Source: Escherichia coli
GTDB lineage: Bacteria > Pseudomonadota > Gammaproteobacteria > Enterobacterales > Enterobacteriaceae
Direction: 5' to 3' (one strand)
Assembly: GCF_041248615.1 (NCBI RefSeq)
Contig: NZ_CP158426.1
Length of the DNA: 64,000 bases
The position numbers and the translations under genes were made by a program. Below are positions 1,704 to 59,016 of the stretch, piece after piece. Numbering within the stretch: the first letter of the stretch is position 1; each line of letters opens with the position of its first letter. The notes under the pieces were generated by a model that was not told the origin of the DNA, searched no databases, and saw only the letters and a program-made list of their open reading frames with translations.

Positions 1704-2659
1704 TGAAGCAACTTTGGTTTGCCATGTCATTAGTGACAGGTAGCCTGTTATTCTCTGCTAACGCCTCGGCCACTCCCGCGTCCGGGGCGTTATTACAGCA
1801 GATGAACCTGGCCAGTCAGTCACTGAATTACGAGCTGTCATTCATCAGCATCAATAAACAGGGTGTTGAGTCTCTGCGTTATAGACATGCACGCCTCGAT
1901 AACCGTCCTCTTGCACAATTGTTGCAAATGGATGGCCCGCGCCGGGAAGTGGTACAGCGCGGCAATGAAATCAGCTATTTTGAACCGGGACTTGAACCGT
2001 TCACGCTTAATGGCGATTACATTGTTGATTCTCTACCATCGCTCATCTATACCGATTTCAAACGCCTTTCTCCTTACTACGACTTTATCTCCGTCGGGCG
2101 CACGCGTATTGCTGATCGTCTTTGCGAAGTCATTCGTGTGGTTGCCCGAGATGGTACACGCTACAGCTACATCGTGTGGATGGACACCGAATCGAAATTA
2201 CCGATGCGGGTTGATCTCCTTGATCGCGATGGTGAAACGCTGGAACAATTTCGCGTGATTGCTTTTAATGTCAATCAGGATATCAGCAGCAGTATGCAGA
2301 CGTTGGCGAAGGCAAATTTGCCGCCGTTGCTTTCTGTTCCTGTAGGTGAAAAAGCTAAATTCAGCTGGACGCCAACCTGGTTGCCACAGGGTTTTAGCGA
2401 AGTTTCCAGTAGTCGACGTCCGCTACCGACGATGGACAACATGCCTATCGAATCACGTCTCTATTCCGACGGATTATTCAGCTTTTCGGTAAACGTTAAC
2501 CGCGCTACGCCATCGAGCACCGATCAGATGTTGCGCACCGGACGCAGAACCGTCAGTACAAGCGTACGTGATAACGCCGAAATCACCATTGTCGGTGAAC
2601 TGCCGCCGCAAACGGCGAAACGCATTGCCGAGAATATTAAGTTCGGGGCAGCGCAATGA
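1703..2659 (+). CDS. rseB: sigma-E regulatory protein RseB (periplasmic)
   Basis: 318-aa ORF with N-terminal signal peptide; adjacent to rseA. Confidence 0.93.
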   Translation: MKQLWFAMSLVTGSLLFSANASATPASGALLQQMNLASQSLNYELSFISINKQGVESLRYRHARLDNRPLAQLLQMDGPRREVVQRGNEISYFEPGLEPFTLNGDYIVDSLPSLIYTDFKRLSPYYDFISVGRTRIADRLCEVIRVVARDGTRYSYIVWMDTESKLPMRVDLLDRDGETLEQFRVIAFNVNQDISSSMQTLAKANLPPLLSVPVGEKAKFSWTPTWLPQGFSEVSSSRRPLPTMDNMPIESRLYSDGLFSFSVNVNRATPSSTDQMLRTGRRTVSTSVRDNAEITIVGELPPQTAKRIAENIKFGAAQ

Positions 2660-3135
2660 TCAAAGAGTGGGCTACCGTCATCTCCTGGGAAAACGGGCAG
2701 GCGCTGGTTAGTTGTGATGTTAAAGCCTCATGCAGCAGCTGCGCTTCACGCGCCGGTTGCGGTAGCCGCGTGTTGAATAAACTTGGCCCGCAAACCACGC
2801 ATACCATTGTCGTACCCTGTGATGAGCCGTTAGTGCCGGGGCAAAAAGTAGAATTAGGAATCGCCGAAGGCAGCCTGCTTAGCTCCGCATTACTGGTTTA
2901 TATGTCGCCGTTGATGGGACTATTCCTCATCGCTTCACTATTTCAGCTACTCTTTGCTTCAGATATTGCAGCATTATGCGGTGCGATTCTCGGTGGCGTT
3001 GGTGGATTCCTGATTGCACGTGGCTGCTCTCGAAAGTTTGCTGCCCGGTCTGAATGGCAACCGATCATCTTAAGCGTGGCCTTGCCGCCTGGCCTTGTGC
3101 GATTTGAAACATCTTCGGAAGACGCGAGCCAGTGA
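2656..3135 (+). CDS. rseC: RseC (membrane protein, SoxR-reducing system component)
   Basis: 159-aa ORF overlapping rseB stop by 4 nt (ATGA); Cys-rich N-terminus and hydrophobic C-terminus. Confidence 0.9.
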   Translation: MIKEWATVISWENGQALVSCDVKASCSSCASRAGCGSRVLNKLGPQTTHTIVVPCDEPLVPGQKVELGIAEGSLLSSALLVYMSPLMGLFLIASLFQLLFASDIAALCGAILGGVGGFLIARGCSRKFAARSEWQPIILSVALPPGLVRFETSSEDASQ

Positions 3136-3332
3136 TTTCACTGGCTTTGTTGCATTTTGCATAACAAATGCGAGGACGTTTCCAGATACCACAATCCATA
3201 CGGTATGAACATTTCCTCGCCTCAATGTTGTAGTGTAGAATGCGGCGTTTCTATTAATACAGACGTTAAGCTCAGAACAGCGACTTCTAAAAGCCTGGTT
3301 AACCGGGCATTAAGGCACAATAATCATACTTT

Positions 3333-5132
<1,800 letters not shown>

Positions 5133-6176: not shown

Positions 6177-6364
6177 GAGATAAATCTCCCGTGGCTAACG
6201 ACATCCCCCGTCGTTGTGTATAGAATATTCCCCCGAAGTTTAAGGTTGGCACCTCCAGGTTGCCACGGCACACGAAACAGCGTTGGTCCCCATATACCGG
6301 TAAACTGAAACTGCAGCGAAGCAGTTAGCAGAACCATGTATATCAGGTCTGTTTCGTGTGCTGA

Positions 6365-7977
<1,613 letters not shown>

Positions 7978-9840: not shown

Positions 9841-9862
9841 AAAAATACCGTTCTCTTTATAA

Positions 9863-9906
9863 AGTAAAACCCCCGAACTGGTAAGGAACGGGGGTTTTAC
9901 TTTTTA
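9863..9906. terminator. bidirectional rho-independent terminator (acpS on +, ohsC on -)
   Basis: aaagtaaaaccccc / gggggttttacttttt stem-loop with U-runs on both strands. Confidence 0.6.
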
Positions 9907-9940
9907 ACTTTAATTTTGTGCAGCACGCACCCTCAACAAG
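9863..9940 (-). ncRNA. ohsC: OhsC-like antitoxin sRNA of the ShoB/OhsC type I TA pair (approximate bounds)
   Basis: Minus-strand promoter-like TTGTAA / CATAAT near 9950-9980; 21-nt segment 9918-9938 directly repeated at 10167-10187 in the shoB 5'UTR, so the divergent RNAs pair with two G-U wobbles; ends at the bidirectional terminator. Confidence 0.45.
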
Positions 9941-10259: not shown

Positions 10260-10340
10260 ATGACTGATTGCCGATACCTGATTAAACGGGTCATCAAAAT
10301 CATCATTGCTGTTTTACAGCTGATCCTTCTGTTCTTATAA
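10260..10340 (+). CDS. shoB: type I toxin ShoB (26-aa hydrophobic peptide)
   Basis: atg act gat tgc cga tac ... taa translates to MTDCRYLIKRVIKIIIAVLQLILLFL; below the size cutoff of the ORF track; followed by a hairpin terminator. Confidence 0.85.
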   Translation: MTDCRYLIKRVIKIIIAVLQLILLFL

Positions 10341-10357
10341 CATAAGGAAACGTACTT

Positions 10358-14914: not shown

Positions 14915-17900
14915 ATGATGGAAATTCTGCGTGGTTCGCCTGCATTGTCGGCATTCCGAATCAACAAACTGCTGGCACGTTTTCAGGCTGCCAGGCTCCC
15001 GGTTCACACTATTTACGCCGAGTATGTCCATTTTGCTGACCTCAATGCGCCGTTAAACGATGATGAGCACGCACAACTTGAACGCCTGCTGAAATATGGC
15101 CCGGCACTCGCCAGCCACGCCCCGCAAGGCAAACTCCTGCTGGTGACCCCGCGTCCTGGCACCATCTCTCCCTGGTCTTCGAAAGCGACCGATATTGCCC
15201 ATAACTGCGGGCTGCAACAGGTAAACCGTCTTGAGCGCGGCGTGGCTTACTATATAGAAGCCGGTACGCTGACCAATGAACAATGGCAGCAGGTTACCGC
15301 TGAACTGCACGACCGCATGATGGAAACGGTCTTTTTTGCTTTAGATGATGCAGAGCAGCTGTTTGCACACCATCAACCGACTCCGGTCACCAGCGTTGAT
15401 TTGCTGGGGCAGGGCCGTCAGGCGCTAATCGACGCTAACCTGCGTCTTGGCCTGGCACTGGCGGAAGATGAAATTGACTATTTGCAGGATGCTTTCACAA
15501 AGCTTGGTCGTAACCCGAACGACATCGAACTGTATATGTTTGCCCAGGCGAACTCCGAGCACTGCCGCCACAAAATTTTTAACGCCGACTGGGTTATCGA
15601 TGGTGAACAGCAGCCGAAATCGCTGTTTAAGATGATCAAAAACACCTTCGAAACCACGCCGGATCACGTTCTCTCTGCTTATAAAGATAACGCCGCCGTA
15701 ATGGAAGGTTCTGAAGTGGGCCGCTACTTTGCTGACCACGAAACGGGCCGCTACGATTTCCATCAGGAACCGGCGCATATTCTGATGAAAGTCGAAACTC
15801 ACAACCACCCGACGGCGATTTCTCCGTGGCCGGGCGCGGCGACCGGTTCCGGCGGTGAAATCCGCGATGAAGGTGCCACCGGGCGCGGCGCGAAGCCGAA
15901 AGCTGGTTTGGTTGGTTTCTCCGTTTCCAACCTGCGAATTCCTGGTTTCGAACAGCCGTGGGAAGAAGATTTCGGTAAGCCTGAGCGCATTGTCACCGCG
16001 CTGGACATCATGACCGAAGGCCCGCTTGGTGGCGCGGCATTTAACAACGAATTTGGTCGTCCGGCACTGAACGGCTACTTCCGTACTTATGAAGAAAAAG
16101 TGAATAGCCACAATGGCGAAGAGCTGCGCGGTTATCACAAACCGATCATGCTGGCGGGCGGGATCGGCAACATTCGCGCCGATCACGTACAAAAAGGCGA
16201 GATCAACGTTGGTGCGAAGCTGGTCGTTCTCGGCGGCCCGGCAATGAACATCGGTCTTGGCGGCGGCGCGGCGTCTTCCATGGCGTCTGGTCAGTCTGAT
16301 GCCGACCTCGACTTTGCTTCCGTACAGCGCGACAACCCGGAGATGGAGCGTCGCTGCCAGGAAGTGATCGACCGTTGCTGGCAGCTTGGTGATGCCAACC
16401 CAATCCTGTTTATCCACGACGTCGGCGCTGGCGGTCTTTCTAACGCCATGCCGGAACTGGTGAGCGACGGCGGGCGCGGCGGTAAATTCGAACTGCGCGA
16501 TATCCTGAGCGACGAACCGGGCATGAGCCCGCTGGAAATCTGGTGTAACGAATCCCAGGAACGCTACGTGCTGGCGGTTGCTGCCGATCAGTTACCGCTG
16601 TTTGACGAACTGTGTAAGCGTGAGCGCGCGCCATACGCGGTGATTGGTGAAGCGACCGAAGAACTGCATCTTTCTTTGCACGATCGTCATTTTGATAATC
16701 AGCCGATCGATCTGCCGCTGGACGTCCTGCTTGGTAAAACGCCGAAGATGACCCGCGAAGTACAAACGCTGAAAGCGAAGGGTGATGCGCTGGTTCGTGA
16801 AGGGATTACCATTGCTGACGCGGTGAAACGCGTGCTGCACCTGCCGACCGTGGCGGAGAAAACTTTCCTGGTGACCATTGGTGACCGCAGCGTAACCGGC
16901 ATGGTAGCGCGCGATCAGATGGTGGGTCCGTGGCAGGTGCCGGTCGCTAACTGCGCGGTCACTACCGCCAGCCTCGATAGCTACTACGGCGAAGCGATGG
17001 CGATTGGCGAGCGTGCGCCGGTTGCGCTGCTGGATTTCGCCGCCTCTGCCCGTCTGGCGGTCGGTGAAGCGTTAACCAATATTGCCGCAACACAGATTGG
17101 CGATATCAAACGCATTAAACTTTCCGCCAACTGGATGGCGGCGGCAGGCCACCCTGGTGAAGATGCGGGCCTGTATGAAGCCGTTAAAGCTGTGGGCGAA
17201 GAACTTTGTCCTGCGCTGGGCCTGACGATCCCGGTGGGTAAAGACTCTATGTCGATGAAAACCCGCTGGCAGGAAGGTAACGAAGAGCGCGAAATGACGT
17301 CGCCGCTGTCGCTGGTGATTTCTGCATTTGCCCGCGTGGAAGATGTGCGTCACACCATCACGCCACAGCTTTCTACCGAAGATAACGCACTGCTGCTGAT
17401 TGATTTGGGCAAAGGCAATAACGCGCTGGGCGCAACGGCGCTGGCGCAGGTTTATCGTCAGCTTGGCGACAAACCGGCAGATGTACGCGATGTCGCGCAA
17501 CTGAAAGGCTTCTATGACGCGGTTCAGGCGCTGGTAGCACAGCGTAAGCTGCTCGCGTACCACGACCGCTCTGATGGCGGCCTGCTGGTAACGCTGGCGG
17601 AAATGGCCTTTGCTGGTCATTGCGGCATTGACGCGGATATCGCCACTCTGGGTGACGATCGCCTGGCGGCGTTGTTTAACGAAGAACTGGGTGCGGTGAT
17701 TCAGGTTCGTGCCGCTGACCGTGAAGCAGTTGAAGCGGTACTGGCACAGCATGGGCTTGCGGATTGCGTCCATTATGTTGGGCAGGCGGTTTCCGGTGAC
17801 CGTTTTGTGATTACCGCCAACGGGCAGACTGTATTCAGCGAAAGCCGCACCACGTTGCGTGTCTGGTGGGCAGAAACTACCTGGCAGATGCAGCGCCTGC

Positions 17901-18802
17901 GTGACAACCCGGAGTGTGCCGACCAGGAGCACCAGGCGAAATCAAACGACGCCGATCCGGGCCTGAATGTAAAACTGTCGTTCGATATCAACGAAGATGT
18001 GGCAGCACCGTATATTGCCACTGGCGCACGTCCGAAAGTTGCTGTGCTGCGTGAGCAGGGCGTGAACTCGCATGTTGAAATGGCGGCAGCTTTCCACCGT
18101 GCAGGCTTCGATGCTATCGACGTGCATATGAGCGACCTGCTGGCTGGACGCACGGGCCTGGAGGATTTCCACGCCCTGGTCGCGTGCGGTGGTTTCTCCT
18201 ACGGTGATGTGCTGGGTGCCGGTGAAGGTTGGGCGAAGTCTATCCTGTTCAATGACCGTGTACGCGATGAGTTTGCAACCTTCTTCCACCGTCCGCAAAC
18301 GCTGGCGCTGGGGGTATGTAACGGTTGCCAGATGATGTCTAATCTGCGCGAACTGATCCCAGGTAGTGAGTTGTGGCCACGTTTTGTGCGCAATACCTCC
18401 GATCGCTTTGAAGCGCGTTTCAGCCTGGTTGAAGTAACCCAAAGCCCGTCTCTGCTGTTGCAGGGGATGGTGGGCTCGCAAATGCCGATTGCTGTATCTC
18501 ATGGTGAAGGGCGCGTGGAAGTGCGTGATGCGGCGCATCTGGCGGCACTGGAAAGCAAAGGGCTGGTGGCACTGCGCTATGTCGATAACTTCGGCAAAGT
18601 CACTGAAACCTACCCGGCTAACCCGAACGGTTCTCCGAATGGTATTACGGCAGTCACGACTGAAAGTGGTCGAGTCACCATTATGATGCCGCACCCGGAA
18701 CGTGTTTTCCGTACTGTCAGCAACTCCTGGCATCCGGAAAACTGGGGCGAGGATGGCCCATGGATGCGCATTTTCCGCAATGCACGTAAGCAATTGGGAT
18801 AA
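14915..18802 (+). CDS. purL: phosphoribosylformylglycinamidine synthase
   Basis: 1295 aa, [23 protein letters not shown]...; C-terminal glutamine amidotransferase domain. Confidence 0.97.
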
Positions 18803-18859
18803 GCCGTCAACCCATTGGTTTTGCAGCCGCATCCGGCATTAAGCACCAACCGCTATTAT

Positions 18860-18890
18860 AAGCTCCCAACTTCGGGAGCTTTTTTGTGTC
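18860..18890 (+). terminator. rho-independent terminator after purL
   Basis: agctcccaacttcgggagct hairpin followed by tttttgtg. Confidence 0.7.
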
Positions 18891-19000
18891 TGTAAATCAC
18901 GACAATGGGTGGTTTACCGTGTCGCTTTCTGGCGACACTTAACTGATTGATTTTAATAGTATCTAATAAGTTTATCTTAAGTTGTCTCTTTTTAGCGACA
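18887..19000 (+). promoter_or_regulatory. three GlrR (QseF) binding sites, TGTC-N10-GACA, upstream of glmY
   Basis: TGTC-N10-GACA at 18887-18904, 18920-18937 and 18983-19000. Confidence 0.6.
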
Positions 19001-19089
19001 CAGTGGCTGATTTACATTCAAATAGCGAAGAAGCCATAAATCCCTCAAAGCAGCGTATAATCAGTACGTTACCAAACTATTTTCTTTAT

Positions 19090-19105
19090 TGGCACAGTTA
19101 CTGCA
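19090..19105 (+). promoter_or_regulatory. sigma-54 promoter of glmY
   Basis: TGGCAC-agtta-CTGCA with canonical GG-N10-GC spacing; predicted start about 12 nt downstream coincides with the GlmY 5' end. Confidence 0.65.
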
Positions 19106-19116
19106 TAATAGTAACC

Positions 19117-19301
19117 AGTGGCTCATTCACCGACTTATGTCAGCCCCTTCGGGACGTGCTACATAAAATTCGAATGACGCACAACAAGGTGCCTGCCGTC
19201 CAACTTCTGATATCAGCGTAGCTATATCAACCATCGGGCGAAACGTCGAGTTAGGCACCGCCTTATTCCATAACAAAGCCGGGTAATTCCCGGCTTTGTT
19301 G
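19117..19301 (+). ncRNA. glmY: GlmY small regulatory RNA
   Basis: Recognised sequence AGTGGCTCATTCACCGACTTATGTCAGCCCCTTCGGGACG... ending in the terminator aaagccgggtaattcccggctttgtt; about 184 nt, just upstream of glrK. Confidence 0.85.
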
Positions 19302-19358
19302 TATCTGAACTTCCCCTCGGTTAGCATCAGGCTATTCGCGTCTGACGAGAGTAACACC

Positions 19359-20786
19359 TTGAAACGCTGGCCCGTTTTTCCCCGCTCATTACGACAACTG
19401 GTAATGCTGGCATTTTTGCTGATTCTGCTGCCCCTGTTGGTGCTGGCATGGCAAGCCTGGCAAAGCCTGAATGCGCTTAGCGATCAGGCGGCGCTGGTTA
19501 ACCGCACTACGCTTATTGATGCCCGGCGCAGTGAAGCGATGACCAACGCGGCGCTGGAGATGGAGCGTAGCTACCGTCAGTATTGCGTGCTGGATGACCC
19601 TACGCTTGCGAAGGTTTATCAAAGCCAGCGCAAGCGTTACAGTGAAATGCTCGATGCCCACGCAGGCGTACTGCCAGACGATAAACTTTACCAGGCATTG
19701 CGTCAGGACTTGAACAATTTGGCTCAACTTCAGTGTAACAACAGCGGTCCCGATGCCGCCGCCGCCGCGCGTCTGGAAGCCTTTGCCAGTGCCAATACCG
19801 AAATGGTGCAGGCCACGCGCACAGTGGTGTTCTCTCGTGGGCAGCAACTTCAGCGTGAAATCGCCGAACGTGGGCAATATTTTGGTTGGCAATCGCTGGT
19901 GCTATTTCTGGTGAGTCTGGTGATGGTACTGCTTTTCACGCGGATGATTATCGGTCCGGTAAAAAATATCGAGAGGATGATCAACCGGTTGGGGGAAGGG
20001 CGTTCTCTGGGCAATAGCGTTTCGTTCAGTGGACCGAGTGAGTTACGCTCGGTTGGGCAACGTATTCTTTGGTTAAGTGAGCGCCTGTCATGGCTGGAAT
20101 CCCAACGTCATCAATTCTTAAGACATTTATCTCATGAATTAAAAACGCCGCTGGCGAGTATGCGCGAGGGCACTGAATTACTGGCTGACCAGGTTGTTGG
20201 GCCGCTTACGCCAGAGCAAAAAGAGGTGGTGAGCATTCTTGATAGCAGCAGCCGCAATTTGCAAAAGTTGATCGAACAACTGCTTGATTACAACCGTAAA
20301 CAGGCGGACGGTGCGGTGGAACTGGAGAATGTTGAGTTAGCGCCACTGGTGGAAATGGTGGTTTCTGCTCATAGCCTGCCCGCACGGGCTAAAATGATGC
20401 ATACCGACGTCGATCTCAAAGCAACAGCTTGCCTGGCGGAGCCAATGCTGCTGATGAGCGTACTGGATAATCTTTACTCCAATGCGGTGCACTACGGGGC
20501 TGAATCCGGTAACATTTGCCTTCGCAGCAGTTTACATGGCGCGCGGGTTTGTATTGATGTCATCAATACAGGCACACCCATTCCGCAAGAGGAACGCGCC
20601 ATGATCTTTGAACCCTTTTTTCAGGGAAGCCACCAGCGAAAAGGGGCGGTGAAGGGCAGCGGTCTGGGATTAAGCATTGCCAGGGATTGTATTCGCCGTA
20701 TGCAAGGGGAACTGTATCTGGTCGACGAGAGCGGGCAAGACGTTTGCTTCCGCATTGAATTGCCGTCGTCGAAAAACACGAAATAA
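19359..20786 (+). CDS. glrK: sensor histidine kinase GlrK (QseE)
   Basis: 475 aa from TTG 19359, (M)KRWPVFPRSLRQLVMLAFLLILLPLL...; HAMP, H-box (LSHELKTPL) and HATPase domains. Confidence 0.9.
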   Translation: MKRWPVFPRSLRQLVMLAFLLILLPLLVLAWQAWQSLNALSDQAALVNRTTLIDARRSEAMTNAALEMERSYRQYCVLDDPTLAKVYQSQRKRYSEMLDAHAGVLPDDKLYQALRQDLNNLAQLQCNNSGPDAAAAARLEAFASANTEMVQATRTVVFSRGQQLQREIAERGQYFGWQSLVLFLVSLVMVLLFTRMIIGPVKNIERMINRLGEGRSLGNSVSFSGPSELRSVGQRILWLSERLSWLESQRHQFLRHLSHELKTPLASMREGTELLADQVVGPLTPEQKEVVSILDSSSRNLQKLIEQLLDYNRKQADGAVELENVELAPLVEMVVSAHSLPARAKMMHTDVDLKATACLAEPMLLMSVLDNLYSNAVHYGAESGNICLRSSLHGARVCIDVINTGTPIPQEERAMIFEPFFQGSHQRKGAVKGSGLGLSIARDCIRRMQGELYLVDESGQDVCFRIELPSSKNTK

Positions 20787-20950: not shown

Positions 20951-21664
20951 ATGCGACACATTTTTCAACGATTATTGCCCCGACGGCTGTGGCTGGCAGG
21001 GCTGCCATGTCTGGCATTGCTGGGTTGCGTGCAGAGTCACAATAAACCAGCCATTGATACGCCAGCAGAAGAAAAAATTCCGGTTTATCAACTGGCTGAC
21101 TATCTTTCTACTGAATGTAGCGACATCTGGGCGCTGCAAGGTAAATCAACCGAAACCAATCCGCTTTACTGGCTGCGGGCGATGGATTGTGCTGATCGTT
21201 TAATGCCTGCGCAGTCGCGTCAGCAAGCCCGCCAATATGACGACGGCAGCTGGCAAAATACCTTTAAACAAGGGATTTTGCTCGCCGACGCCAAAATTAC
21301 GCCGTATGAGCGCCGCCAGCTGGTCGCGCGCATTGATGCGCTAAGTACCGAGATCCCGGCACAGGTTCGCCCTCTGTATCAACTCTGGCGCGACAGTCAG
21401 GCGCTGCAACTGCAACTGGCGGAAGAGCGCCAACGCTACGGCAAGCTCCAGCAATCCAGCGACAGCGAGCTGGATACTTTGCGCCAGCAATATCACGTTC
21501 TACAGCAGCAACTGGAACTCACCACCCGCAAGCTGGAAAACCTGACTGATATTGAACGCCAGCTCTCGACCCGCAAACCGGCTGGAAATTTCTCGCCGGA
21601 TACGCCACACGAGAGTGAAAAGCCCGCGCCATCCACCGATGAGGTCACTCCTGATGAGCCATAA
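20951..21664 (+). CDS. qseG: outer-membrane lipoprotein QseG
   Basis: MRHIFQRLLPRRLWLAGLPCLALLGC... with lipobox; 237 aa; between glrK and glrR. Confidence 0.88.
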   Translation: MRHIFQRLLPRRLWLAGLPCLALLGCVQSHNKPAIDTPAEEKIPVYQLADYLSTECSDIWALQGKSTETNPLYWLRAMDCADRLMPAQSRQQARQYDDGSWQNTFKQGILLADAKITPYERRQLVARIDALSTEIPAQVRPLYQLWRDSQALQLQLAEERQRYGKLQQSSDSELDTLRQQYHVLQQQLELTTRKLENLTDIERQLSTRKPAGNFSPDTPHESEKPAPSTDEVTPDEP

Positions 21665-22988
21665 ACCTGCGCATTTATTATTGGTCGATGACGATCCGGG
21701 ATTGCTGAAACTGCTTGGCCTGCGCCTGACCAGCGAAGGCTACAGCGTGGTCACGGCGGAAAGTGGTGCTGAAGGATTACGGGTACTGAATCGCGAAAAA
21801 GTAGATTTAGTTATCAGCGACCTGCGGATGGATGAAATGGATGGTATGCAGCTGTTTGCTGAAATCCAGAAAGTGCAGCCGGGAATGCCGGTAATTATTC
21901 TTACCGCACATGGTTCTATTCCCGATGCCGTTGCTGCAACACAGCAGGGAGTGTTCAGTTTCCTCACCAAGCCTGTCGATAAAGATGCGCTATATCAGGC
22001 AATTGACGATGCGCTGGAACAATCCGCGCCAGCCACCGATGAACGCTGGCGCGAGGCGATTGTCACCCGCAGCCCGCTGATGCTGCGTTTGCTGGAACAG
22101 GCGCGGCTGGTGGCGCAATCAGACGTTAGCGTTTTGATTAACGGCCAGAGCGGCACCGGGAAAGAGATTTTCGCCCAGGCTATCCACAACGCCAGCCCGC
22201 GCAACAGCAAGCCATTTATTGCTATTAACTGTGGCGCATTACCCGAGCAATTGCTGGAGTCGGAGCTATTTGGTCATGCGCGTGGCGCGTTTACTGGCGC
22301 TGTCAGCAATCGCGAAGGTTTATTCCAGGCGGCGGAAGGCGGTACGCTATTTCTCGATGAGATTGGCGATATGCCCGCACCGTTGCAGGTCAAACTGCTG
22401 CGCGTGTTGCAGGAGCGTAAAGTGCGCCCGCTGGGCAGTAACCGCGATATTGATATCGACGTGCGGATTATTTCCGCCACTCACCGCGACCTGCCAAAAG
22501 CGATGGCGCGCGGGGAATTCCGCGAAGATCTCTATTACCGCCTCAACGTTGTCAGCCTGAAAATTCCGGCACTGGCGGAGCGCACAGAAGACATTCCGCT
22601 ACTGGCAAATCACCTGTTGCGCCAGGCGGCAGAGCGACATAAACCGTTTGTCCGCGCGTTCTCTACCGATGCGATGAAACGCCTGATGACCGCGAGCTGG
22701 CCGGGTAATGTGCGCCAGTTGGTCAACGTGATTGAACAGTGCGTGGCGCTGACCTCATCTCCGGTGATTAGTGATGCGCTGGTGGAGCAGGCGCTGGAGG
22801 GTGAAAATACGGCGCTGCCAACCTTTGTTGAGGCACGTAATCAGTTTGAACTCAACTATTTGCGTAAGCTGCTGCAAATCACCAAAGGCAACGTCACCCA
22901 CGCGGCGAGAATGGCGGGGCGCAACCGGACAGAATTTTATAAACTGCTTTCCCGACACGAGCTGGATGCAAACGATTTCAAGGAATGA
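21654..22988 (+). CDS. glrR: sigma-54-dependent response regulator GlrR (QseF)
   Basis: [21 protein letters not shown]..., 444 aa; receiver domain, AAA+ sigma-54 activator domain with GAFTGA, C-terminal HTH; overlaps the qseG stop. Confidence 0.93.
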
Positions 22989-37106: not shown

Positions 37107-37210
37107 GGTGCGGACACTGCCAGTCTGACCTGTTAAAGGCTGCAGGGCTGGCCAGAAGCACGCTGTACTACCAGCTGTCACTGCAGAAGGCTAAGGACAA
37201 GTATGCTGAT

Positions 37211-37965
<755 letters not shown>

Positions 37966-49933: not shown

Positions 49934-50044
49934 TAAAAAGTATTCAGAATCAGGCCGGAGTGTTTAACACTCCGTAAACACGGTCGTACATCCAGCCGGT
50001 AGCCTGGTTCCTTGCATTGAGTGATGTACGGAGTTTATAGAGCA

Positions 50045-55040: not shown

Positions 55041-55284
55041 TTTCCGCGTCATGCTTCACGCCGCAGATGCGTTGGCTGCGCTCGTTCACCCCAGTCACAT
55101 AGTTATCTATGCTCCTGGGGCTTCACTCACTTGCCGCGTGATTCGGCCTTTTGGCCTCACCCCTTTGGGGCCAGCGCAAGCGCTGTTCAAAACGCAATGC
55201 GTTTTGTCCTGCAACGCGAATCATTTAGCGGAAAAATCCTGGGGCTGCCAACTGGCGGCCCTTTTACAAAGAAGGATAACTAAA

Positions 55285-56686: not shown

Positions 56687-57463
56687 ATGTCCGAAACAAA
56701 AAACGAACTTGAAGATCTGCTGGAAAAAGCAGCAACCGAACCGGCGCACCGCCCGGCCTTTTTCCGTACTCTACTGGAATCCACCGTCTGGGTGCCGGGT
56801 ACGGCGGCGCAGGGCGAGGCTGTGGTTGAAGATAGCGCGCTTGATTTACAGCACTGGGAAAAAGAAGACGGCACCAGCGTCATTCCTTTTTTTACCTCGT
56901 TAGAAGCACTTCAACAGGCGGTTGAAGACGAACAGGCATTTGTCGTAATGCCCGTTCGCACATTGTTTGAGATGACCCTTGGCGAAACGCTCTTCCTTAA
57001 TGCCAAACTGCCAACCGGTAAAGAATTTATGCCGCGTGAAATCAGTTTGTTGATTGGTGAAGAAGGAAATCCGCTGAGCAGCCAGGAAGTACTGGAGGGC
57101 GGTGAATCGCTGATATTATCGGAAGTCGCAGAGCCGCCAGCACAAATGATTGATTCACTCACCACCTTATTTAAAACTATTAAGCCGGTGAAGCGTGCTT
57201 TTATTTGTTCAATTAAAGAGAACGAAGAGGCACAGCCTAATTTACTTATTGGCATTGAAGCCGATGGTGATATCGAAGAAATTATTCAGGCGGCGGGAAG
57301 TGTAGCGACCGATACATTACCTGGCGATGAACCCATCGATATTTGTCAGGTGAAAAAAGGGGAAAAAGGAATTAGCCACTTTATTACCGAACATATTGTG
57401 CCATTCTATGAACGTCGCTGGGGTGGTTTTTTGCGTGACTTTAAACAGAACCGGATAATCTAA
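56687..57463 (+). CDS. sseB: SseB-family protein (enhanced serine sensitivity protein)
   Basis: MSETKNELEDLLEKAATEPAHRPAFFRTLL..., 258 aa; position between pepB and sseA. Confidence 0.88.
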   Translation: MSETKNELEDLLEKAATEPAHRPAFFRTLLESTVWVPGTAAQGEAVVEDSALDLQHWEKEDGTSVIPFFTSLEALQQAVEDEQAFVVMPVRTLFEMTLGETLFLNAKLPTGKEFMPREISLLIGEEGNPLSSQEVLEGGESLILSEVAEPPAQMIDSLTTLFKTIKPVKRAFICSIKENEEAQPNLLIGIEADGDIEEIIQAAGSVATDTLPGDEPIDICQVKKGEKGISHFITEHIVPFYERRWGGFLRDFKQNRII

Positions 57464-57808
57464 AATATGCCGCCCCAAAGGGCGGCATTCGGGCTTACCT
57501 GCTGTTCTGAAGGTTGTTAACCACCAGTAAATTGTTGCCGGAGAGACTCCGGTTATTATTTACCTCGGTTAACAGCGCACCAGAAACAATAAGTACGATA
57601 CAAAAGCACCGTATCTTCATTGTGCGGTCCATGCGAAGACCGCATCACGACAGCACCACTGGCGATATTGCCGCGATAGCAAGCGCTGTGAAACACCTGC
57701 ATTTACGGCCATGGAACATCCTTTCCTTAAGCCAGCGCCCGTTTGCGAGACGGCGGAAAGGGCCGGTGTCGATAATACGCTAAATAAACAATGATTACTC
57801 TCTTTCGC

Positions 57809-58957
57809 TGTGTAAGTTCACAGAGATATTGCAATTACCTCCGGATAAGTAAGGGGAGATTGCACTATGCAAATGCAGCATCTGATGGTTGGCTATCCTA
57901 AGTACTACCAAACGGCCGATTATGCGTTGAGGCTTTCAGTGATGGCTGATACAGCAACAATGAGAATGAAGGCTCTGCACTTCTGGGATAAACACGGTAT
58001 TTCTGCAGCTTCTGAAGCCTTTGGCGTGTCCTGCCGCACGCTTTACTGGTGGCGTCAGTTACTGAACAAGGGAGGACCTGAGGGGCTAATCCCGCACAGT
58101 AAGGCACCTCTGGTGCGACGAAAAAAGCACTGGCATCCCGATGTGCTGAAAGAGATTCGACGGCTGCGGACAGAGCTGCCGAACCTCGGTAAAGAGCAGA
58201 TTTTTGTTCGCCTGAAGCCCTGGTGCGAACAGCGCTATCTGGCCTGTCCAAGTGTTTCCACCATCGGCAGAATGATCGCTGCCGCACACGATAAAATGCG
58301 AATGATACCTGTGCGTCTGGGCTCGCGGGGGAAGGCACTGCTTGTCAAAAAGCGGTCTGCCAAACCCCGCAGACCAAAGCACTACCGCCCGGTAAAGACA
58401 GGTGAGCTCATTGGGATGGACGCCATTGAGCTCAGAATGGGCGAACTGCGTCGCTATGTCATCACCATGATCGACGAATGCAGCAATTACGCGCTGGCGC
58501 TGGCTGTACCGTCGCTCAACAGTGATATCGTCAATCACTTCTTCAGCCGTGCAGCCCGGCTGTTCCCGGTCGGTATCAGTCAGATAATCACAGATAACGG
58601 AAAAGAGTTCCTGGGAAACTTCAACAAAACGCTGCAGGAAGCCGCTATCAAACACCTCTGGACCTATCCCTACACGCCAAAAATGAACGCTATCTGTGAA
58701 CGTTTTAACCGGACGTTAAGAGAGCAGTTTATTGAATTTAATGAGATTTTACTCTTTGAAGATCTGGCGCTATTTAATCAGAAGCTGGGGGAATATCTGG
58801 TACTGTATAACAGCAAAAGGCCCCATAAGGCGCTCGCACTAATGACGCCCGTGGAATATATTTTAAGAGAGAACAAAAATTGCAATATGTGGTGGACCCA
58901 TACATTCGCTTGACAAAAAGAGAGTTACTGGCGAGTATTGCTTTGCTGTGAAGCACC
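57809..58957 (+). mobile_element. IS481-family insertion sequence (boundaries approximate)
   Basis: Single DDE-transposase ORF flanked by gapped imperfect inverted repeats sharing TTCACAG and GCAAT blocks (left about 57811-57842, right about 58929-58955); outer ends and target duplication are not resolved. Confidence 0.45.
57867..58913 (+). CDS. IS481-family DDE transposase (HTH plus integrase-core/rve domain)
   Basis: 348-aa ORF; N-terminal HTH (FGVSCRTLYWWRQ); catalytic residues in GMDAIEL, ITDNGKEF and ICERFNRTL; C-terminal YNSKRPHKAL motif typical of IS481/IS3 rve domains. True start may be an internal Met. Confidence 0.8.
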   Translation: MQMQHLMVGYPKYYQTADYALRLSVMADTATMRMKALHFWDKHGISAASEAFGVSCRTLYWWRQLLNKGGPEGLIPHSKAPLVRRKKHWHPDVLKEIRRLRTELPNLGKEQIFVRLKPWCEQRYLACPSVSTIGRMIAAAHDKMRMIPVRLGSRGKALLVKKRSAKPRRPKHYRPVKTGELIGMDAIELRMGELRRYVITMIDECSNYALALAVPSLNSDIVNHFFSRAARLFPVGISQIITDNGKEFLGNFNKTLQEAAIKHLWTYPYTPKMNAICERFNRTLREQFIEFNEILLFEDLALFNQKLGEYLVLYNSKRPHKALALMTPVEYILRENKNCNMWWTHTFA

Positions 58958-59016
58958 TGCGTTGCTCCGACAACACAAGTCAACCTGCTGGAAAGGCCGC
59001 GAACCAGACCAGCAAT

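Follow-up and report, generated by a model that had tools for sequence, protein, structure and literature searches.

The architecture of the small RNA gene glmY and its neighbours in Escherichia coli K-12 has already been published in every detail (Reichenbach 2009; Göpel 2011, 2018; Khan 2020), and four papers describe exactly such an arrangement and its mechanism (PMC3045617, PMC6075780, PMC4152352, PMC7073468). The K-12 glmY promoter was found by experiment to be sigma-54- and GlrR-dependent, and its dependence on rpoN, glrR, and IHF was demonstrated for a sequence identical to the one reported here (PMC3045617). Of the published GlrR sites (ABS), ABS1 is dispensable, while ABS2 and ABS3 are essential, with ABS2 being needed for sigma-54 promoter activity; IHF site 1 is likewise essential for the sigma-54 promoter, and IHF site 2 is only putative (PMC3045617). 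The same study published CATAAT as the -10 hexamer of a K-12 glmY sigma-70 promoter and found this promoter to be confined to some of the genera. The RNA itself is processed, and its 148-nt form is the active species, which sequesters RapZ and leaves full-length GlmZ to activate glmS (PMC4152352). RapZ is also the sensor of GlcN6P: GlcN6P-free RapZ stimulates QseE/QseF phosphorylation and hence glmY transcription, and GlmY binding feeds back negatively on this stimulation (PMC7073468). The qseEGF genes (glrK-qseG-glrR) have their own weak sigma-70 promoter just downstream of glmY, with a start 25 bp before the qseE start codon; they are not autoregulated, and QseG is required for QseE/QseF phosphorylation (PMC6075780).

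Related systems share much of this design. GlmZ (RF00083), which belongs to the same Rfam clan as GlmY (CL00011), is homologous to it and has the same central RapZ-binding stem-loops, but GlmZ forms base pairs with the mRNA of glmS, whereas GlmY has no such complementarity and acts as a decoy (PMC4152352). Unlike glmY, the glmZ gene of E. coli is served by a sigma-70 promoter alone, and GlrR does not bind it (PMC3045617). In Yersinia pseudotuberculosis and Salmonella, the glmY/glmZ promoters are of the sigma-54 type and come with IHF sites and three ABS boxes (Göpel et al. 2011; PMC3045617).

The stretch of DNA analysed here (the window, 64 kb in total) was a segment of the E. coli chromosome with the core order rpoE … purL-glmY-glrK-qseG-glrR-glnB … isc, or more fully nadB'-rseD-rpoE-rseABC-lepAB-rnc-era-recO-pdxJ-acpS … mltF-purL-glmY-glrK-qseG-glrR-glnB-hmp-glyA … hca … isc … sseA-yfhM-pbpC'. 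Its orientation was inverted relative to K-12 MG1655, where glmY (b4441; formerly sroF/tke1) stands in the same order of purL-glmY-glrK-qseG-glrR-glnB. The 556-bp purL-glrK intergenic region was found in 5425 of 5426 complete E. coli genomes, on the chromosome every time, and was 100% identical in four of the records listed. An earlier note, made from the letters alone, had read this region as an intact GlmY module. All of its sequence elements were present, identical or nearly identical to those of K-12 and conserved in Enterobacterales; each lay where the note had placed it or within 1 nt of that position, and its interpretation was supported. The locus is almost certainly a canonical, intact E. 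coli glmY with its GlrR/IHF/sigma-54 control region, followed by glrK-qseG-glrR, and nothing was seen that substantively contradicts this. It is core E. coli biology, governing glucosamine-6-phosphate and cell-envelope homeostasis. The present analysis serves only as a sanity check, with a small comparative addition on the start codon of the kinase gene. The features are as follows.

14915–18802: purL coding sequence
18860–18886, plus strand: purL intrinsic terminator, an 8-bp stem (18860–18881) followed by a T-run, called by a terminator scan
18887–18904, no strand assigned: ABS1, GlrR/QseF binding site TGTCTGTAAATCACGACA, at -230 to -213; exact TGTCN10GACA, identical to K-12
18920–18937, no strand assigned: ABS2, GlrR/QseF binding site TGTCGCTTTCTGGCGACA, at -197 to -180; exact TGTCN10GACA, identical to K-12
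18940–18952, minus strand: IHF site 1 (distal) AATCAATCAGTTA, at -177/-165; exact match to the consensus WATCARNNNNTTR
18983–19000, no strand assigned: ABS3, GlrR/QseF binding site TGTCTCTTTTTAGCGACA, at -134 to -117; exact TGTCN10GACA, identical to K-12
19059–19071, plus strand: IHF site 2 (proximal) AATCAGTACGTTA, at -58/-46; exact match to the consensus WATCARNNNNTTR
19090–19105, plus strand: sigma-54 promoter, -24/-12 elements TGGCAC-N5-CTGCA (TGGCACAGTTACTGCA), identical to K-12
19104–19109, plus strand: sigma-70 -10 hexamer CATAAT of a weak promoter with the same start site, overlapping the -12 element
19117–19300, plus strand: GlmY primary transcript, 184 nt, mapping base for base to K-12 b4441 with 1 SNP
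19117–19264, plus strand: GlmY processed active core, 148 nt, with a 5' stem-loop and the central RapZ-binding stem-loop (RF00128)
19270–19302, plus strand: GlmY intrinsic terminator hairpin, 14 bp with a 5-nt loop and an interrupted U tail, identical to K-12
19299–19334, plus strand: weak sigma-70 promoter of qseEGF (glrK-qseG-glrR), its start at 19334 transferred from K-12
19359–20786, plus strand: glrK (qseE/yfhK), sensor histidine kinase, 475 aa, TTG start, with HisKA and HATPase_c domains
20951–21664, plus strand: qseG (yfhG), outer-membrane lipoprotein, 237 aa, NCBIfam NF007997 equivalog, Pfam Lipoprotein_20
21654–22988, plus strand: glrR (qseF/yfhA), sigma-54-dependent response regulator, 444 aa, NCBIfam NF011695 equivalog

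The purL terminator ends directly before ABS1, so essentially the whole purL-glrK intergenic region was accounted for. Two open reading frames overlapping GlmY (18982–19221 on the plus strand and 19127–19357 on the minus strand) were rejected as mechanical, the RNA and its promoter explaining the region. An ungapped comparison with strain VCSW5 gave 28,743 mismatches, a figure that reflected a shift of frame from an IS insertion elsewhere in the window rather than divergence.

The identification of the RNA as GlmY was borne out both by the Rfam model and by alignment to K-12 glmY. The match to RF00128 (GlmY_tke1) reached 147.1 bits against a gathering score of 33 (E = 8e-33) and covered model positions 1–163 of 163; the model spans the 148-nt processed core only, without the terminator. 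In clan competition the GlmY match prevailed over a single overlapping match of lower score to the same clan, which was discarded. The primary transcript folded at -64.2 kcal/mol (z = -5.5). The sole difference from K-12 in the RNA, T instead of A at GlmY nt 54 (position 19170), falls in an internal loop that is unpaired in the Rfam consensus structure, leaving the conserved stem-loops unaltered. T54 is the majority allele, the surrounding 41-mer being identical in 3687 of 5425 E. coli genomes, and among the loci listed it was also the majority base in other genera. The processing of the 3' end to 148 nt had been omitted from the earlier note.

For comparison across Enterobacterales, at least 120 loci were collected by a pattern scan of species-representative genomes, using a motif of 20 specified bases from the GlmY 3' core. 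They came from Escherichia, Citrobacter, Salmonella, Enterobacter, Kluyvera, Cedecea, Serratia, Yersinia, Pectobacterium, Dickeya, Brenneria, Xenorhabdus, and others. Because the loci were chosen by a pattern inside GlmY, the invariance of the 3' alignment (20 positions in the last ~24 nt) was by construction. In the 102 distinct GlmY cores listed, which are related sequences compared with a structure that came from aligning the window itself to Rfam, 96.6% of pair cells were standard pairs, compared to 30–40% when the partners were slid, and compensatory double-sided changes occurred at 9 of 38 pairs. Among the matches listed, glrK lay downstream of GlmY in ~105 loci.

The RNA is followed by a terminator, as the earlier note had described. 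The hairpin was strong (-23.4 kcal/mol, z = -7.7), and only the distance of 57 bp given to glrK needed correction: measured from the annotated 3' end at 19300, it is 58 nt. A simple terminator scan of 18780–19420 called the purL terminator only and passed over that of GlmY because a G breaks its U tail, part of which belongs to the long stem. A generic sigma-70 scan of the same interval called no promoter; the CATAAT promoter was missed because its -35 is weak. We treated these misses of promoters and of the GlmY terminator as reflecting weak or atypical elements and the criteria of the tools, not absence.

The cognate glrK, qseG, and glrR genes were present downstream as proposed, all three of full length without internal stops, and glrR overlaps qseG by 11 nt. 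GlrK differed from its K-12 counterpart by 4 substitutions (471/475 identical), QseG by 6 amino acids, and GlrR by 1 (443/444 identical). QseG scored 354.8 bits with NF007997 (cut-off 234) and GlrR 982.3 bits with NF011695 (cut-off 763). The Pfam domains of GlrR were Response_reg, Sigma54_activat, and AAA_lid_14, and no Pfam match to a helix-turn-helix at the C-terminus was listed at E <= 1e-5. For GlrK, none of the 25 best NCBIfam models listed scored up to its cut-off, and the orthology of the protein therefore rests on identity and synteny.

How these three genes are transcribed bears on whether glmY and the two-component genes form one autoregulatory operon, with read-through of the GlmY terminator feeding the glrK-qseG-glrR mRNA. 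Such an arrangement would fit the layout, glmY and glrK being adjacent, co-oriented, and 58 nt apart, with the synteny kept in the related loci listed, and a study on P. mirabilis reports glmY-qseE-qseG-qseF as one operon (PMC8745638). In K-12, however, lacZ fusions that carried the entire glmY region could not be told apart in activity from those that lacked it, RT-PCR detected virtually no read-through into qseE, and qseEGF has a start site of its own (PMC6075780). The terminator and spacer of the window are identical to those of K-12, and the hairpin is very stable, which makes a single operon improbable here. Transcription of glrK-qseG-glrR from the separate weak promoter would place its hexamers at 19299–19304 (-35, TTGTAT) and 19322–19327 (-10, TAGCAT). 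These putative hexamers agree with the consensus at 7 of 12 positions, below the threshold of the scan, and the -35 overlaps the tail of the GlmY terminator. The separate qseEGF promoter in the 58-nt spacer had also been passed over in the earlier note.

The start of glrK was proposed to be TTG, and this agreed with the K-12 protein NP_417051.2, with the PGAP annotation WP_024180333.1, and with the comparative evidence, the codon lying at 19359–19361. In E. coli, neither ATG nor GTG occurs in frame from the upstream stop codon to 19359, which leaves two TTGs (19296/19299) inside the GlmY terminator stem as the only in-frame candidates upstream. Among the matches listed, codon 1 was TTG in 98–99 of 106 loci, including every one of the 38 where an ATG is also available in frame, three codons upstream. 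Across those 38 loci, the invariant Leu11 and Leu14 were encoded by 4 and 6 different codons, respectively, so that the TTG is conserved beyond the need to encode leucine. GlrK residues 2–15 (KRWPVFPRSLRQLV; KRW.. FPRSLRQLV) were conserved across the order in the loci listed, with free synonymous variation, which argues that they are translated. Position 16, where the next ATG of E. coli lies, was M, T, I, V, or L in the loci listed, so the codon-16 ATG is not conserved. A GAGA motif was conserved 9–12 nt upstream of the TTG in the loci listed.

A start elsewhere, either at the ATG of codon 16 (19404) or at the upstream TTGs, might be entertained given the rarity of TTG as a start codon, the opening of the mechanical open reading frame at 19296, and the weakness of the putative Shine-Dalgarno sequence GAGAG (19347–19351). 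We also found no statement on the TTG start of qseE/glrK/yfhK in the searchable literature. These alternatives are nevertheless very unlikely. Initiation at codon 16 is opposed by the conserved and synonymously varying residues before it and by the variable codon itself; the upstream TTGs lie 5' of the mapped K-12 mRNA 5' end at 19334 (PMC6075780), besides their position in the terminator stem; and both kinds of alternative are at odds with the retention of TTG in the 38 loci where the Leu11 and Leu14 codons drift, and with the concurring annotations. On these comparative grounds, the most likely reason for the conservation of the TTG is that translation initiates there. We lean towards a broader proposal, that the TTG is the true start across Enterobacterales, selected at the nucleotide level as a weak start codon that may, together with the weak promoter, keep the kinase scarce relative to GlrR and QseG. 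The conserved TTG fits the very low abundance of QseE in K-12 (PMC6075780). The order-wide conservation of the glrK TTG at the nucleotide level is the one modest addition to what is known of this locus.

Upstream of glmY, the three TGTC-N10-GACA boxes claimed for GlrR were found and were the only exact matches in the 64-kb window. They had been described as exactly spaced, which holds for the N10 within each box and does not hold for the boxes themselves, whose starts are 33 and 63 bp apart. The two IHF sites, which the earlier note did not mention, lie on either side of ABS3. Site 1 differs from K-12 by a single SNP (18945) at an N position of the consensus, and site 2 was less conserved than site 1 across genera. 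The whole conforms to the layout of bacterial enhancer-binding systems, with activator sites more than 100 bp upstream of a sigma-54 promoter and an IHF site between.

The sigma-54 promoter was likewise found as predicted, with its start at the GlmY 5' end. Since K-12 mapping puts the 5' end of glmY at 19117, the motif begins 27 nt before it, and the GG and GC elements, 10 nt apart, are properly placed. The -12 element CTGCA has one mismatch from the consensus TTGCA. A -10 element for sigma-70, suggested as something to look for, was indeed present as CATAAT, although the overlapping promoter has no convincing -35.

Counts alone say little about these motifs. Only 0.82 matches to TGTCN10GACA were expected in the whole window, but the count by itself is weak evidence because at least three also occurred in 5 of 100 shuffles, and the sigma-54 motif alone was at chance level (2 matches at <=1 mismatch, 2.17 expected). 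That the boxes and the sigma-54 motif are therefore accidents and glmY is driven by sigma-70 alone, as E. coli glmZ is, is scarcely credible, given that all three boxes fall inside 114 bp (about 1e-6 such clusters expected by a rough Poisson estimate), that more than 100 species conserve both the spacing of the boxes and the distance to the promoter, and that the elements do not differ from the K-12 sites dissected by experiment (PMC3045617).

This conservation was seen throughout the related loci, with all of the following counts taken among the matches listed. The ABS2/ABS3 pair was present in 105 of the 106 loci with enough flank, and the spacing between the two was 63 bp in 99 of 105, as in the window. 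An ABS1-like box stood 31–33 bp before ABS2 in 105/105 loci. IHF site 1 was found with <=1 mismatch at a fixed offset from ABS3 in 111/114 loci. The motif TGGCA[CT]-N5-NTGC[AT] lay 26–28 nt before the GlmY 5' motif in 114/115 loci, and the distance from promoter to 5' end was exactly 27 nt in 102 of those 114; the -12 part of this pattern was relaxed afterwards, the strict form [TC]TGC[AT] having missed ~45% of loci because many genera have GTGCA or ATGCA. CATAAT overlapped the -12 element in 68/114 loci, which is consistent with the published restriction of the sigma-70 promoter to some genera (PMC3045617). Yersinia lacks this overlapping -10, having CATTAT or CATTGT instead of CATAAT, and its boxes are ~16 bp further from the promoter than those in E. 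coli.

Within E. coli, the 230-bp control region contained 9 SNPs relative to K-12, all outside the ABS boxes, the specified IHF positions, and the promoter, and the flanking genes differed by 2.5–4% of nucleotides. No differences from K-12 were found in 19054–19169 and 19171–19370; IHF site 2, the promoter, the terminator, the spacer, and the TTG all lie within these two stretches. ABS1–3, the specified IHF positions, the sigma-54/sigma-70 promoter, the terminator, the 58-nt spacer (19301–19358), and the TTG are thus identical in the two, and the differences that remain are nt 54 of GlmY and a few substitutions in the three proteins. Purifying selection on the known elements would be expected to leave such a pattern of SNPs.

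From this identity with K-12, we infer that the same mechanism would operate, and the locus behave the same way, in the present strain; binding, sigma-factor dependence, processing, and the RapZ mechanism are taken from the published K-12 work. Phosphorylated GlrR (QseF) would bind the three TGTC-N10-GACA sites at -230, -197, and -134, and IHF at the sites flanking ABS3 would bend the DNA so that the AAA+ activator contacts sigma-54 RNA polymerase. The polymerase, held as a closed complex at TGGCAC-N5-CTGCA, would then be opened to start at 19117, while the weak sigma-70 promoter may provide basal transcription from the same nucleotide. The 184-nt transcript would end at the hairpin terminator and be trimmed to 148 nt, a form that would mimic GlmZ and sequester RapZ, the adaptor of RNase E. 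With RapZ sequestered, GlmZ would survive and activate glmS translation when glucosamine-6-phosphate is scarce. GlcN6P-free RapZ would in turn stimulate GlrK/GlrR phosphorylation, closing the loop. The glrK-qseG-glrR genes would be transcribed apart from glmY, from the weak sigma-70 promoter in the 58-nt spacer, with glrK translated from TTG.

The window also holds rpoE (444–1019), whose E. coli promoter rpoEP2 is another QseF/GlrR- and sigma-54-dependent promoter, paired with the sigma-70 promoter rpoEP3 (PMC6358824). The authors of that study called the pairing analogous to glmY. Upstream of rpoE in the window there was no exact TGTCN10GACA, only relaxed TGT-N12-ACA motifs at 44–61 and 118–135, which are candidate QseF sites.

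The glmY small RNA is left unannotated by the PGAP records that were examined. In PGAP-annotated E. coli genomes no feature is listed under the glmY region (window 19117–19300; the hit table reads 'none'), and the PGAP annotation of strain VCSW5 has no glmY row, while the gene is annotated as an ncRNA in the curated K-12 record. Among 5426 complete E. coli genomes, the purL–glrK intergenic region had no match in one genome and was found at two places in another single genome.

Within the RNA itself, GlmY nt 52 (window 19168) was an A in the window, and a C at this position was found in 90% or more of the Enterobacterales in the alignment. The A was common to the window and the four other Escherichia-labelled sequences with the same 5' stem-loop, namely E. 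albertii, E. whittamii, and two E. coli, and it also occurred in a few other genera (Mangrovibacter and one Pluralibacter MAG). Nucleotide 52 is unpaired and lies in an internal loop, beside the polymorphism at nt 54.

In the glmY locus of Candidatus Symbiopectobacterium sp. 'North America' (locus L092), TAGCAT replaces TGGCAT, and this was the only one of 115 loci among the matches listed where the sigma-54 −24 motif was missing. The 5' stem of GlmY was altered at this locus as well (GCTAATTC), and its glrK product had PHSL instead of PRSL; the circuit may be decaying in the symbiont. A further glmY locus lies on contig CACSKA010000009.1, which is labelled Chryseobacterium sp. 18061, a Bacteroidota species. 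The glmY on this contig was typical of enterobacteria and came with ABS boxes (GlrR binding sites) and a sigma-54 promoter, and the GlrK encoded there was 88% identical to that of E. coli across the aligned N-terminal 150 residues. The record is probably a contamination or a mislabelled assembly. In Enterobacter sp. EA-1 (CP025776.1), the GlrK N-terminus could be aligned only from residue 44, and a stop was found within the extrapolated reading frame. The gene may be frameshifted or a pseudogene, or the sequence may contain an error.

The other known target dependent on QseF/GlrR and sigma-54 is rpoEP2 (PMC6358824), whose region, the nadB–rpoE intergenic region (1–443), lies within the same window as glmY. 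No exact TGTCN10GACA box was found in this intergenic region. Two relaxed TGT-N12-ACA motifs were present, at 44–61 and 118–135, and are candidate QseF sites.

Other RNA matches in the window at the Rfam gathering threshold
2620–3451, minus strand, AsrC, antisense to rseC
6235–6449, plus strand, rncO
9861–9937, minus strand, ohsC, adjoining shoB at ~10261–10341
49934–50043, plus strand, iscRS stability element
55142–55214, minus strand, AaHKsRNA22, borderline (47.2 bits vs 39.8)
57462–57766, minus strand, ryfA (with timP)

The window also differed in length from VCSW5. At the start junction of the Rfam iscRS element (~49934), the iscR–iscS spacer of VCSW5 was longer by ~127 bp, which suggests a variable repeat element. 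The interval between ryfA/timP and sseA was ~1.2 kb in the window (57806–58980) and only ~0.34 kb in VCSW5. The annotation of this segment in identical or near-identical genomes is either 'integrase core domain-containing protein' or IS481-family transposase, and on that basis the segment is probably an IS remnant. Between yphB and yphA, the window carried an extra 1.43 kb (36534–37965), annotated in identical genomes as an IS3-like IS1397-family transposase; this insertion sequence was present in multiple copies in many E. coli genomes.
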